32,000 bases of DNA from Comamonadaceae bacterium (lineage in GTDB: Bacteria; Pseudomonadota; Gammaproteobacteria; Burkholderiales; Burkholderiaceae_C). This document shows, piece by piece, positions 14,247-22,969 of the stretch. Under the pieces are notes generated by a model that was not told the DNA's origin, made no database searches, and saw nothing but the letters and a program-made list of their open reading frames with translations. Positions within the stretch are counted from its first letter, which is position 1. Every line of letters begins with the position of its first letter. Both the position numbers and the translations under genes were made by a program. Where the stretch lies: assembly GCA_021299875.1 (NCBI GenBank), contig JAJTEW010000005.1:161370-193369 (forward strand). The letters are read 5' to 3'.

Positions 14247-14267
14247 ATCGTCCAGTAACAAGACGAT
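14247..14267 (+). repeat. 21-bp site S1: ATCGTC CAGTAACAA GACGAT
   Basis: The 6-bp inverted arms are perfect and the 9-nt spacer is asymmetric. The site lies 17 nt after the integrase stop codon. Confidence 0.8.
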
Positions 14268-14402
14268 GTAGATGTTTTTTTACACGACAGTTTTGGTGCA
14301 TGCGCGTAGCAAATGTTGTTGAAAGGGATACTGACTACACATTTTTAGCAAGCTGATAGGCAGCAGTGCCGCGATGATTGAGTGTAAATCCTTTATCATT
14401 AT

Positions 14403-14431
14403 TTGCATATAAAAAATAAAATTGTTAATAC
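14403..14431 (+). promoter_or_regulatory. Possible sigma70-type promoter
   Basis: TTGCAT (14403-14408), a 17-nt spacer, then TAATAC (14426-14431). The ATG at 14445 would leave a very short leader with no clear SD. Confidence 0.3.
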
Positions 14432-14444
14432 TTGGGAATTTAAT

Positions 14445-15149
14445 ATGACTACTGCCACTTTTATGGAAAATTTCAGCAGCGATTTGGTCTCTATCAAAGT
14501 GACTGGAGATGGTGCCAATGTTTGGGCGTACGCGATTGACGCAGAGACCTATGCCCGCATTTCCGAGGACTGTGGCGATGAAGACCCAGTTGATGTGATC
14601 ATGGACGAGTACCAAGTGGGACAGTTGGTTTGCTGGGGTATAGATGAATCCAGCGGTTGCACTGTATCTATGGATGTGGCCGGAAAATCCACTTTATTAA
14701 AAATCGTCCATACCTACGATGGTTATGACATCGATGAAGCAGTTAAGGATCGCAATCTTTCCGCTTCCACACCAATTATTGAGTACAACAGTGACGCGGC
14801 AGAGAGACTTGGCGCTGTTTTCGACCTAAGCGATTTGAGTCATGTTTTTGTGGACTCAATAACCTGGAAAGACATAACTCTGCAGCTTACGTTGCCTGTT
14901 GTGGCTAGAGATTTTGATCAGCGTAAACTTTCGCTACTGGTTTGCGGTATGGACTCTGAAACTGAATTGTCAGCACTCACTTACCAGACCGGCTTATTGA
15001 ATGGCCTGGAAGCCGACATCATTGGCGTCATCTATGACGGCAAAAAATACTTCTTCCAGTCCGAATGTAAGCGTGCTTTTCAGCAACGTCGATACATAGT
15101 TGGTCGCACGGATGATGGCTGGGAAATTGACGAAAAAGTTACAATCTAA
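14445..15149 (+). CDS. Acidic hypothetical protein, 234 aa
   Basis: This is an open frame whose likely start is MTTATFMENF, inside ORF 14403-15149. I recognise no domain. It lies between the inverted sites S1 and S2. Confidence 0.5.
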   Translation: MTTATFMENFSSDLVSIKVTGDGANVWAYAIDAETYARISEDCGDEDPVDVIMDEYQVGQLVCWGIDESSGCTVSMDVAGKSTLLKIVHTYDGYDIDEAVKDRNLSASTPIIEYNSDAAERLGAVFDLSDLSHVFVDSITWKDITLQLTLPVVARDFDQRKLSLLVCGMDSETELSALTYQTGLLNGLEADIIGVIYDGKKYFFQSECKRAFQQRRYIVGRTDDGWEIDEKVTI

Positions 15150-15151
15150 AA

Positions 15152-15240
15152 GTATAGGGAGAGGTCACAATTTAACGGCAATGATTGAGCAGCACTACTC
15201 AAAGTTGACGGCGACGATGGCAGCCGACAGGTTGGCTTAA
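15152..15240 (+). pseudogene. Relic 3' end of a tyrosine integrase gene
   Basis: It reads ..GHNLTAMIEQHYSKLTATMAADRLA*, which parallels ..ARTSVEMIERFYASNLTAEMNIDLL of the intact integrase. No upstream coding part is present. Confidence 0.5.
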
Positions 15241-15260
15241 ACGTCTGGTTACTGGACGAT
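15240..15260 (-). repeat. 21-bp site S2; the plus strand reads AACGTC TGGTTACTG GACGAT, the normalised form is ATCGTC CAGTAACCA GACGTT
   Basis: S2 is inverted relative to S1, and the spacers are identical at 8 of 9 positions. It overlaps the TAA stop of the integrase relic. Confidence 0.75.
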
Positions 15261-15295
15261 ACAATGATCAGATAATTGATTGCATAATTCCATTA

Positions 15296-15361
15296 TTACT
15301 TAAGCAATTCCAAAACAAGTTGAGGTTGCGAATTTGCTTGTGCCAGCATGGCCGTTGCTGC
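15296..15361 (-). other. In-frame continuation of the flagellin reading frame beyond its TGA stop
   Basis: The 21 codons after the TGA at 15362-15364 read AATAMLAQANSQPQLVLELLK then TAA. That is the canonical flagellin extreme C-terminus (compare E. coli FliC ..AQIIQQAGNSVLAKANQVPQQVLSLLQG). Confidence 0.8.
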
Positions 15362-21681: not shown

Positions 21682-21707
21682 CCAAATCAAAGCGTGATTT
21701 GATTTGG
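21682..21707. promoter_or_regulatory. 9-bp-arm palindrome in the control region upstream of the small recombinase
   Basis: ccaaatcaa (21682-21690) and ttgatttgg (21699-21707), about 100 bp upstream of the recombinase start codon. Confidence 0.4.
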
Positions 21708-21884
21708 TACTGGTATTTATGCTTGTTGAGCCACTCAATGTGGGATCTGCGCCACGACAGCAAGGCGACTGCACACAACAGCGCACAAGCGTTTTTTGTC
21801 GCTTCCAGCTACACAGGGCGCTGCTCAAGCGAGATCGTTGCGCAAAGCGTGGATTTGAGGTGTGGGCTGCTGTAGTGTGGACAC

Positions 21885-21914
21885 TGCGCCAGCAAAAACA
21901 GTACTGCTGGCGCA
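21885..21914. promoter_or_regulatory. Perfect 10-bp-arm palindrome
   Basis: tgcgccagca (21885-21894) and tgctggcgca (21905-21914) flank a 10-nt loop. Confidence 0.4.
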
Positions 21915-21949
21915 GCTGTCATTTGGGAAGGTTTTGCTTCAAGTCGTAG

Positions 21950-22560
21950 CATGCCATTTGTATTTTTAATTGCGCTCATGTGCCCATTCCACTTTGTAAG
22001 CGAGCGCTGCTCGCTTGTGATGTCGCAGATCTCATTCGCTGGCGCTCATGATCTGCTCATCACTTGTTTTCAGAAATTCAAACTGCGAACCATTCAAAGA
22101 GTTCAACATGTAGCTCAAGAGGGATATTCGATAGATTCAACCCACACTGAGCCATATGCAAACAGGCTCAGTCATGGGCTACGGACTTTCGATGAGTTCG
22201 TTACCACAGCACTTGTGCACAACCCAACGGGTAAGGGCGGTTTCGCGGTCTCCTTTTATGTGCAGCTTCAAATGAAACGCAACTGCTGCGACAGCTCAAG
22301 TGCCAACTGTCTGCAGGGTTCGCAAGTTGCTGTGTCGGCAGAGCTTGCTCGTGATGCACAGGTAAGCCCTGCCATCTTTGTGCTTGATATCCTTCTTGTG
22401 TCAATCAGACTGCAACATCCAAAATCATCCTCAACGGGTAGTGACAACAAGTCTCTGCTACTGCTCAGAATTTCCAATCCCTGTGACACCAATGTCCAGT
22501 TTTAGGGCACCAAACGACTGAGGGTGCTGCTCATTTTCAGTAGTGACTTTGCCAGTGCAG
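21950..22560 (+). ncRNA. Copy 1 of a large hairpin-rich non-coding element (candidate structured RNA or cis-acting DNA element)
   Basis: It is homologous to 30725-31440. Identical blocks include ttcgatagattcaacccacactgagcc, aagggcggtttcgcggtctcctttta and gcagagcttgctcgtgat. Between them are 1-nt indels and at least four hairpins whose stems differ between the copies yet remain complementary. ORF 21951-22505 is not conserved in copy 2. Confidence 0.55.
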
Positions 22561-22583
22561 TTTTCCTATTCTGTCCTGTGCCA

Positions 22584-22643
22584 AGTATTTAGTCCTGCCA
22601 AATAAAAACTGCTTTTTTTCGTGGTCGTATTTGACTAAATACT
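22584..22643. promoter_or_regulatory. 11-bp inverted repeat bracketing the region just upstream of the 22646 gene
   Basis: agtatttagtc (22584-22594) and gactaaatact (22633-22643). Confidence 0.4.
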
Positions 22644-22645
22644 GC

Positions 22646-22960
22646 ATGCAAGACTACATCGCCACCATTCGCATTAAGGGCACCACGATCAAGACCGTTG
22701 TGCATGCAGAAAACACCACCCACGCCCGTTTGCTCCTGCAATATCACTATGGGATGGACAGCATCGTTGCCAGTCCTGTGCTGGCAGAAACACTCAAGCC
22801 CAAAACCCCTGAGCAGCTGCGCTTGGACAGTCTCAAAGCCAACAAGGACAGGGCAGCAGATGCGCTGGCTGCAGAGCGCCAACGCCAAAAGATCAGCAAG
22901 GCACAACAGGCCATGACAGCAGCGCAGCAGTCCACCAGCGTCACCCCCAACGTCCCGTAA
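22646..22960 (+). CDS. Hypothetical small protein, 104 aa
   Basis: The ATG at 22646 (MQDYIATIRIKGTTIKTVVHAENTTHARLLLQYHYG...) lies within ORF 22631-22960. Copy 2 has no counterpart. The stop codon lies inside site S7. Confidence 0.5.
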   Translation: MQDYIATIRIKGTTIKTVVHAENTTHARLLLQYHYGMDSIVASPVLAETLKPKTPEQLRLDSLKANKDRAADALAAERQRQKISKAQQAMTAAQQSTSVTPNVP

Positions 22961-22969
22961 CTGGACGTT
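22949..22969 (-). repeat. 21-bp site S7; the plus strand reads AACGTC CCGTAACTG GACGTT, the normalised form is AACGTC CAGTTACGG GACGTT
   Basis: S7 overlaps the TAA stop of the 22646-22960 gene. Confidence 0.65.

Follow-up and report, generated by a model that had tools for sequence, protein, structure and literature searches.

Gene content of the island and its element family

The stretch of DNA analysed here (the window, 32 kb in length) carries an island that belongs to a large family of integrative elements found in Limnohabitans, Polynucleobacter and other Comamonadaceae. Members of this family insert at a DUF2389 gene, and the island and its attachment gene are made up as follows.

12202-12426, minus strand: DUF2389 attachment gene, beside the integrase gene
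12929-14230, plus strand: element integrase, 433 aa, adjoining the DUF2389 attachment gene
14403-15149, plus strand: cargo gene ORF248, no family match
15362-17968, minus strand: cargo flagellin, 868 aa, low G+C
18392-19267, minus strand: module gene ORF291, Trp-rich N-terminus, no known family, weak AF2 model
19408-20196, plus strand: module gene ORF262, all-helical, uncharacterised family, no fold match
20193-20936, plus strand: module gene for an AAA+ ATPase, clamp-loader/RFC-like at the sequence level
20997-21584, minus strand: catalytic-domain-only tyrosine recombinase, probable start Met8, giving 188 aa
22397-22532, minus strand: Polynucleobacter-1 RNA (Rfam RF01718, 96.9 bits)
22631-22960, plus strand: core gene ORF109
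23103-23543, plus strand: core gene DUF6641

The core of the elements consists of the integrase, DUF6641, the Polynucleobacter-1 RNA, a recombinase of 188-195 aa, and a module in which ORF291 is transcribed divergently from ORF262 and the AAA+ ATPase. The recombinase, described in the original prediction as a small arm-less protein of 195 aa, indeed has the catalytic domain only (Pfam Phage_integrase, 1e-28), and its alignment shows no variation at the Arg, His-x-x-Arg, His and Tyr residues that make up the usual catalytic motifs. No other protein of the family is as highly conserved. A search with it gave 6843 homologues at E <= 1e-10, mostly on metagenome contigs, and the ORF262 family comprises about 870 clusters at 50% identity. 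Literature searches found no description of these integrative elements, and the island DNA had no similarity match in E. coli genomes or in plasmids.

No Pfam, NCBIfam, PHROGs or PADLOC match was obtained for ORF248, ORF291, ORF262, ORF83, ORF184 or ORF109. The usable model of ORF262 (pLDDT 72) had no fold match in PDB or BFVD, while the AF2 model of ORF291 (pLDDT 54) was too poor for a fold search. None of the module proteins has a DNA-binding domain recognisable with Pfam, NCBIfam, PHROGs or PADLOC, and their PDB sequence and profile matches were marginal only. This observation, like the missing fold match of ORF262, speaks against a DNA-binding protein encoded in the module.

Seven palindromic sites at conserved positions

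Seven 21-bp sites were proposed in the island, and all of them were recovered as exact matches to the pattern WWCGTCCNNNNACNNGACGWT, at 14247, 15240, 18342, 18380, 19462, 20940 and 22949. The sites (S1 to S7) and the signals around them are listed below.

14247-14267: S1, class-A palindrome, 17 nt past the integrase stop
14273-14289: degenerate class-B palindrome TGTTTTTTTACACGACA, adjoining S1
15169-15240, plus strand: relic 3' end of a second integrase type, encoding the peptide NLTAMIEQHYSKLTATMAADRLA and a stop, 86% nucleotide identity to the integrase end of the related element L017
15240-15260: S2, overlapping the stop codon of the relic integrase 3' end
18342-18362: S3, first of a tandem pair downstream of ORF291, with a 38-bp spacing that is kept in relatives
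18380-18400: S4, overlapping the ORF291 stop codon (...I-V-stop)
19462-19482: S5, within ORF262 codons 19-25 (I-V-Q-Q-L-D-V), synonymous positions frozen
20940-20960: S6, starting 3 nt past the AAA+ stop, at the convergent junction with the recombinase gene
20962-20987, plus strand: intrinsic terminator, directly 3' of S6
21682-21707: perfect 10-6-10 inverted repeat, 144 bp upstream of the recombinase start
22949-22969: S7, with the ORF109 stop TAA at the site centre
22973-22989: class-B-like palindrome TGTCGTGTTAAACGTCA, adjoining S7 and kept at this junction in A and B elements

Shuffled windows gave a mean of 0.00 matches to WWCGTCCNNNNACNNGACGWT. When up to 3 mismatches to the originally proposed consensus were allowed, the same seven places were found and no others, against 0.02 expected in 32 kb, so that the proposals of a recurrence beyond chance and of no further sites in the window both held. 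Confinement of the sites to the island was also borne out: class-A element DNA contained 155 good sites in 309 kb (5.0 per 10 kb), whereas the density over 1.07 Mb of DNA outside was 0.35 per 10 kb in flanks and, for other loci (922 kb), 0.13 per 10 kb. A scan of viral contigs with the S5 core yielded two loci, neither of which matched any window protein.

The site DNA is under purifying selection at the DNA level, as seen at S5. Among 42 distinct ORF262 genes, 98-100% use one and the same codon at each of positions 19-25, while the major codon accounts for just 38-70% at the invariant residues flanking S5. The seven sites are real, non-random and under strong selection. Two extra half-sites (TTGGACGWT) at 19564 and 19600 were rejected; they look coding-related, and the peptides encoded there vary in relatives.

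The placement at gene ends and module junctions that had been proposed was supported, the sites occupying conserved core positions of the element family. S1 does follow the integrase stop and S5 does lie inside a coding region. S2, S4, S6 and S7 were all thought to overlap or follow a stop codon of a gene; this is correct for S4, S6 and S7, but the stop at S2 belongs to a relic integrase fragment and not to an intact gene. The median distance from the site centre to the last codon was 17 nt for AAA+, 5 nt for ORF291 and 2 nt for ORF109, and in the related element L004 the recombinase gene and the ORF291 homologue converge with 34 bp between them, a gap that contains just the 17-bp palindrome. 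Terminators with T-runs, as the original prediction had it, are separate from the sites; besides that at 20962-20987, there is one at 23014-23030. The divergent ORF291/ORF262 promoter region (19268-19407) contains neither a site nor a half-site, and therefore the arrangement is not that of classical operators, such as those lying over the divergent promoters of phage immunity modules.

The architecture of the motif was derived from 178 distinct sites gathered from relatives and oriented by gene direction. The two half-sites were equally good in this orientation, with for example 7.88 and 7.74 matches of 9, and the motif is therefore a degenerate symmetric palindrome, ATCGTCCAG-TWA-CTGGACGAT (9-3-9), with degenerate inner positions. 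Consequently, neither the asymmetric spacer between inverted arms nor the fixed orientation relative to the gene that had been described was retained, since the halves are equivalent around a 3-bp centre and lack polarity. The sites measured 15-21 bp, without conserved flanks, and their central bases vary among sites of one element. Pairing of mirrored positions was no commoner than column composition predicts, and no compensatory covariation was detected across the 178 sites, of which just 38-42% had complementary bases at the inner pairs 8-14 and 10-12, at or below expectation. Since the half-sites are equivalent by gene direction and mirrored pairing does not exceed expectation, the motif would seem to be read by a dimer on duplex DNA rather than as a hairpin or a polar site.

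Module lineages and their own palindromes

Each module lineage has its own palindrome. An element of 7-12 kb carries 3-9 copies of it, and the core positions that these occupy are the same: on or just past the stops of core genes, at convergent junctions, and once within ORF262 at its 5' end. The palindromes of relatives at these equivalent places include TGTCGTG-N3-CACGACA, TGTCG-N8-CGACA, GTTGTTT-N-AAACAAC, GCGTTAC-N4-GTAACGC, GTCGTTTWAAACGAC and TGTCGGTTWAACCGACA. Between classes A and B, the integrase, recombinase, ORF109 and DUF6641 are 82-89% identical, compared with 24-36% for the modules. The recombinases of L017 (class A) and L019 (class B) are 91% identical and those of L015 (class B) and L014 (class B') 95% identical, and the motifs differ in both pairs. 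Among class-A elements, recombinases are just 51-96% identical to that of the window. The motif tracks the ORF291/ORF262/AAA+ module and not the recombinase. Both classes can reside in one genome, as in Limnohabitans strain DCL3, which carries L017 and L019 and is, like L. parvus II-B4, a cultured carrier.

The rule of one motif per module is not clean, because the backbone junctions of class-B elements still carry good class-A sites, and those of class-A elements good class-B sites. Past the integrase stop, the window retains its A site and the B site has decayed, while L004 shows the reverse. A general decay of non-cognate sites was considered and rejected, since it is true at the integrase junction only; both classes keep the B-like site at the ORF109 end, and some perfect A sites are located in B elements.

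ORF291 was found without sites in L073 and L076, and L114 has ORF291 and sites without ORF262 and the AAA+ gene. Both observations count against a module-encoded binder.

Role of the sites and comparison with known systems

Several roles were weighed for the sites. They had been proposed as core sites of the 195-aa recombinase, and in the form of this idea considered here, the small recombinase would use the palindromes for crossover or synapsis while a module protein reads the DNA for it in trans (a "split" recombinase); modules and cargo would then be shuffled by recombination of co-resident elements at equivalent sites. The recombinase indeed lacks an N-terminal DNA-binding domain and always adjoins the module, and in most cases a palindrome separates the two. 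Relative to the recombinase, the module has opposite orientations in class A and class B, with sites at both ends. The mosaic blocks (integrase, module, recombinase-ORF109, DUF6641) have their boundaries at site positions, and an insertion in L099 is bounded by two copies of terminator plus site. The proposal of core sites is nevertheless unsupported, because the motif class tracks the module while recombinases 91-95% identical accompany different motifs, and because the sites are symmetric about a 3-bp centre, without the asymmetric 6-8-bp overlap and the polarity of lox, FRT, dif or att cores. Central bases that differ within one element would moreover block classical strand exchange. Relatives stably hold 6-9 identical copies without rearrangement, and 9 class-A and 10 class-B near-identical copies of elements from different samples were collinear, with no rearrangement breakpoint in a site among them. 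Module orientation is constant within each class. Evolutionary chimeras have relic gene ends beside sites, which does not in itself place breakpoints within the sites; the relic integrase and recombinase 3' ends agree with homologous recombination in conserved genes or with deletion between tandem elements rather than with exchange inside the sites. The split-recombinase reading is thus regarded as improbable. A cassette array was also rejected, since cargo is not regularly split by sites, as seen from the multi-gene cargo without internal sites in L090, L094, L111 and L074; this undivided cargo counts against core sites as well. The sites, at 15-21 bp and without structural covariation, differ from integron attC sites (about 55-140 bp, paired R/L boxes), and the 188-195-aa recombinase scored 56 bits in the NCBIfam integron-integrase model, against a cut-off of 265.

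A function in 3' UTRs as RNA or single-strand hairpins, be it as REP-like stabilisers, processing signals or terminators, is very unlikely. Most sites lie in transcribed DNA between a stop codon and a terminator, and for four of the seven the folding was significantly better than that of shuffles (z -3.4 to -4.4), but for the other three it was not, the pairing statistics of the 178 sites give no sign of a conserved stem, and strand polarity is lacking. The sites have no T-run and true terminators adjoin them; a terminator scan picked 20962 and 23014, while the site stems were weak (-5 to -13 kcal/mol). The REP-like element that had been listed among the possible roles is disfavoured, because the density is element-bound and the arms show no compensatory covariation. 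In the sequence compared, neither genome-wide abundance nor the compensated hairpin and RAYT of REP/BIME systems was found, and no RAYT-type or transposase-like gene was matched in the element.

Another possibility is that the sites are centromere-like or copy-control sites of an excised circle, whose copies would be paired, condensed or segregated by a module protein and the AAA+ motor, after the models of parS, KorB OB, matS or iterons; the diversity of motifs would then reflect incompatibility of co-resident elements. Short palindromes do occur every 0.2-3 kb across the element and also within genes, one of them inside a module gene; many specificity classes share one architecture, single genomes such as DCL3 hold elements of different class, and a circular or tandem junction was seen in L009. 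This role, too, seems rather doubtful, given that no ParBc/HTH or ParA match was found in any element protein (Pfam, NCBIfam), the ATPase being AAA+, and no Rep-like domain or replication genes were found. The dispersed short palindromes of ParB/KorB systems are thus present, without their ParB-family binder and ParA ATPase. The sites are unclustered, unlike origins or centromeres, and such a role does not require their strong bias to stop codons and convergent junctions; in contrast to iterons, they are palindromic and dispersed, only S3 and S4 being adjacent.

Binding by an island-encoded factor, one of the roles listed in the original prediction, is now the best reading. With modest confidence, we regard the sites as probable cognate double-stranded DNA sites of a dimeric, sequence-specific module protein, with a boundary, roadblock or loading role that is suggested by their position. 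The putative binder would be ORF291 or ORF262, and its binding would mark operon ends; a comparison of ORF291, ORF262 and AAA+ across the motif classes did not single out one of them as the binder. Bound sites may block read-through between tightly packed convergent units; such a boundary or roadblock role has position as its sole basis. The internal site S5 may attenuate ORF262-AAA+. Alternatively, the sites could be loading points for an ORF262/AAA+ machine. The small recombinase would act elsewhere, a candidate being the conserved inverted repeat that precedes the recombinase gene. A bolder proposal, which we consider rather unlikely, is that the module is a new exchangeable DNA-recognition system, either as the reading half of a split recombinase, with the extremely conserved 188-aa protein as catalytic half, or as an element-encoded protein roadblock with an AAA+ partner that would set operon ends instead of intrinsic terminators; in either version, specificities would diversify like immunity groups.

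These data define a family of small integrative elements that is abundant in the dominant freshwater Betaproteobacteria and so far undescribed, and they give the orphan Polynucleobacter-1 RNA a genomic home. They also show a module-specific DNA code written on the element's own stop codons and strong enough to freeze synonymous codons. Because the proteins concerned have no known fold or family, naming the binder and its role would assign a function to several uncharacterised families, and could show how compact elements insulate or organise operons. With cargo that includes flagellins and toxin-antitoxin pairs, the elements add to the microdiversity of lake bacterioplankton.

Among known systems, REP/BIME elements with RAYT are likewise imperfect palindromes that occupy convergent intergenic regions and the 3' ends of genes, and they fall into sequence classes tied to a nearby gene; here, however, the sites are element-restricted in the sequence compared, without hairpin covariation or an HUH transposase. 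The loxP, FRT, dif/pdif, fim and attC sites share inverted arms, a length of about 21 bp, a small recombinase nearby and a location at module boundaries, but the present sites have no asymmetric 6-8-bp overlap, their specificity is not linked to the recombinase, no rearrangements were seen at them and multiple identical copies are tolerated. In MatP-matS, SlmA-SBS and Noc-NBS, palindromes often lie within or between genes and are scattered through one DNA domain, which they mark for a dimeric binder, as might be the case here; the domain here spans 10 kb instead of hundreds of kb, is element-encoded and of variable specificity, and no homology to these systems was found.

Lambdoid immunity regions, with cI/cro and imperfect palindromic operators of 14-18 bp, are likewise swappable modules in a conserved backbone, with divergent genes and palindromes of their own, each composed of one good and one weaker half-site. 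They differ in that the sites described here lie at 3' ends and convergent junctions, with none in the divergent promoter, and no HTH_3 or cI-like match was obtained. KorB-OB, the operator network of IncP-1 plasmids, and ParB-parS also consist of short palindromes dispersed on a mobile element, many of them intergenic or far from promoters, and cognate to an element-encoded protein with an ATPase partner, which is putative here. In contrast to these, no ParB, KorB or ParA-type domain was detected in the elements; their partner is an AAA+ ATPase, their sites are tied to stop codons, and their specificities are many and interchangeable.

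Palindromic sites in the island

The pattern of the original prediction matched the window exactly at the seven positions it had named (S1 to S7), and dinucleotide-preserving shuffles of the window gave no match. The claim that the rest of the window holds no further copies also stood, since a tolerance of three mismatches still returned only those seven places in 32 kb. The gene map of the island is as follows.

12929-14230, integrase
14247, site S1
14403-15149, ORF248 (cargo)
15240, site S2
15362-17968, minus strand, low-G+C flagellin of 868 aa (cargo)
18342 and 18380, sites S3 and S4
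18392-19267, minus strand, ORF291
19408-20196, ORF262, with S5 inside
20193-20936, AAA+ ATPase
20940, site S6
20962-20987, terminator
20997-21584, minus strand, tyrosine recombinase of 195 aa
22631-22960, ORF109, its stop codon at the centre of S7
23014-23030, terminator
23103-23543, DUF6641
23651-24682, second recombinase

The stop codon that S2 overlaps belongs to a 72-bp relic of the 3' end of another integrase, so that all seven sites belong to core genes of the element and not to cargo. The flagellin cargo gene has about 36% G+C and 345-nt internal repeats. Read on both strands, the site is a near-palindrome, ATCGTCCAG-TWA-CTGGACGAT, of which every window copy has one good and one weaker half; the flanks share no similarity beyond the site.

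Site motifs across the element family

Elements were grouped by palindrome motif, the window being class A and the related locus L004 class B. From about 60 elements, 178 distinct class-A sites were recovered at fixed positions: in the convergent junction of the recombinase and AAA+ genes, within ORF262 (codons 19-25), at the stop of ORF291 (either one site or two spaced 38 bp apart) and at that of ORF109, and downstream of DUF6641 and of some integrases. Per 10 kb, class-A elements contain 5.0 good class-A sites, the DNA flanking them 0.35 and a further 922 kb from other loci 0.13, in line with a restriction of the sites to these elements.

Elements whose recombinase is 85% identical to that of the window lack its motif and carry TGTCGTG-N3-CACGACA at equivalent places, namely after the stops of the recombinase, AAA+, integrase and DUF6641 genes and inside the ORF262 homologue. 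Other lineages have TGTCG-N8-CGACA, GTCGTTTWAAACGAC, TGTCGGTTWAACCGACA, GTCCTTT-N2-AAAGGAC, GTTGTTT-N-AAACAAC or GCGTTAC-N4-GTAACGC. The related elements L145 (1572-11429) and L142 hold six to nine perfect copies of GTCGTTTWAAACGAC, one of them within the recombinase coding region. GTCG-N7-CGAC is common to motif classes B, F and G, among which only the inner 7 bp vary.

Between the window and L004 most of the backbone is highly similar (integrase 88%, recombinase 86%, ORF109 89% and DUF6641 82% identical), whereas their modules (ORF291, the divergent ORF262 and the AAA+ ATPase) are only 24-36% identical and their motifs differ. Motifs also differ between L017 and L019 of one genome (recombinases 91% identical) and between L015 and L014 (95%), and the recombinases of class-A elements are only 51-96% identical to that of the window. 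Closely related recombinases with different motifs, together with divergent modules with different motifs, indicate that the motif travels with the module. For none of ORF291, ORF262 and AAA+ does protein identity track motif similarity cleanly, and ORF291 genes found in isolation have sites in some cases and none in others. In L103 (959-2115), an IS3-family transposase pair lies directly upstream of the ORF291 homologue in place of ORF262/AAA+.

The seven codons of S5 each use one codon in 98-100% of 42 distinct ORF262 genes, while for the invariant residues that flank S5 the favoured codon accounts for only 38-70%. At the integrase junction, an A site precedes a B site in both the window and L004; in the window the A site is intact and the B site decayed, and in L004 the reverse holds. 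There are exceptions to this reciprocal decay: both classes conserve a B-like site next to the ORF109 stop, and some B elements retain perfect A sites at backbone junctions.

Conserved backbone, hosts and insertion

The Rfam motif Polynucleobacter-1 (RF01718), an orphan RNA since Weinberg et al. 2010 (PMC2864571), is a conserved part of the backbone, located about 0.8-0.9 kb upstream of the recombinase gene and on the same strand.

22397-22532 and 31276-31413, minus strand, Polynucleobacter-1 in the window (95-97 bits)
9142-9277 in L004, 9047-9182 in L019 and 5034-5171 in L138, Polynucleobacter-1 in relatives

'ORF184' (21951-22505, plus strand) is probably not a gene, because it overlaps this RNA on the opposite strand and carries frameshifts in many relatives. 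A perfect 10-6-10 inverted repeat, CCAAATCAAA-N6-TTTGATTTGG (21682-21707), lies 144 bp upstream of the recombinase start. Its sequence is the same in class-A and class-B backbones, more distant relatives having other palindromes there; the repeat may serve the recombinase itself as a site or operator.

The window is metagenome-assembled Limnohabitans DNA, with nine near-identical copies in other samples. A homologue search gave thousands of relatives of the small recombinase, mostly uncultured freshwater sequences; named genomes were Limnohabitans, Polynucleobacter, Hydrogenophaga, Herbaspirillum and other Burkholderiales. The relatives share DUF6641, ORF109, the recombinase, the module and an integrase, and are inserted at a DUF2389 attachment gene, which is partly duplicated at both ends. 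One contig displays a circular or tandem junction. No paper describing this element family was found in the literature.

The backbone recurs at 30950-32000 as a partial, divergent second copy comprising an ORF184-like region, the second Polynucleobacter-1 RNA and, at 31656-32000, a DUF6641 homologue, which suggests that elements have accumulated in tandem. Fragments of the DUF2389 gene recur at 9418-9463, 10376-11012 and 12202-12595, as 70-nt and 56-nt direct repeats of 80-86% identity flanking a dienelactone-hydrolase gene (11066-12049, 39% G+C), and resemble leftovers of previous integrations at this site. Outside the island, 2081-8101 encodes a two-partner secretion pair made up of a TPS-domain exoprotein of 1424 aa and a transporter of the ShlB/FhaC type; in its middle part the exoprotein gene drops markedly in G+C (to about 43% at 4.0-5.0 kb) and has a strong GC skew.

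Nature and possible role of the sites

The predicted asymmetric spacer of fixed orientation was not upheld: with sites oriented by the direction of the adjacent gene, both halves match the consensus equally, which also argues against a polar recombination site. Mirrored positions are no more complementary than column composition predicts (inner pairs in only 38-67%), and shuffled sequence folds as well as three of the seven window sites do. Together these properties argue against a hairpin and are characteristic of a symmetric dimer that binds double-stranded DNA.

The suggestion that the sites are core sites of the 195-aa recombinase was not supported, since they have no asymmetric overlap region and their specificity is uncoupled from the recombinase. 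Central bases vary between sites of one element, nine identical symmetric copies persist in a stable order in some elements, collinearity holds among near-identical element copies from many samples, module orientation is constant within each class, and multi-gene cargo often has no internal site. Chimeras in which a duplicated core-gene 3' end adjoins a site were found at S2 (relic integrase end), in L107 (relic recombinase end) and in L099 (duplicated terminator plus site); such ends are the expected product of deletion between tandemly integrated elements or of homologous exchange inside conserved genes. In L107 (1440-2340), L021 and L122, a RelE-like/HTH toxin-antitoxin pair lies between recombinase and module, bounded by a class-B site at one end and by a relic recombinase 3' end, a terminator and a class-A site at the other.

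We propose, with moderate confidence, that a dimer encoded by the module binds the sites. Promoter operators are disfavoured, because the sites lie on stop codons and in convergent gaps and none lies in the divergent promoter region of the module; gaps down to 34 bp contain a site and nothing else. The bound sites may instead mark operon ends, where the protein would act as a roadblock or insulator or where the ORF262/AAA+ pair would load; the site inside ORF262 would then provide feedback on its operon. A centromere-like or copy-control role for the excised circle is possible, and a split-recombinase role is less likely.

The sites do not fit the definitions of recombinase core sites, attC arrays, REP elements, terminators or iterons. 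In operation, their closest parallels are the dispersed plasmid sites of KorB or ParB, along with domain markers of the matS type, and their specificity swapping recalls phage immunity regions. Membership of these systems fails, because no defining protein domain is present and the placement differs.
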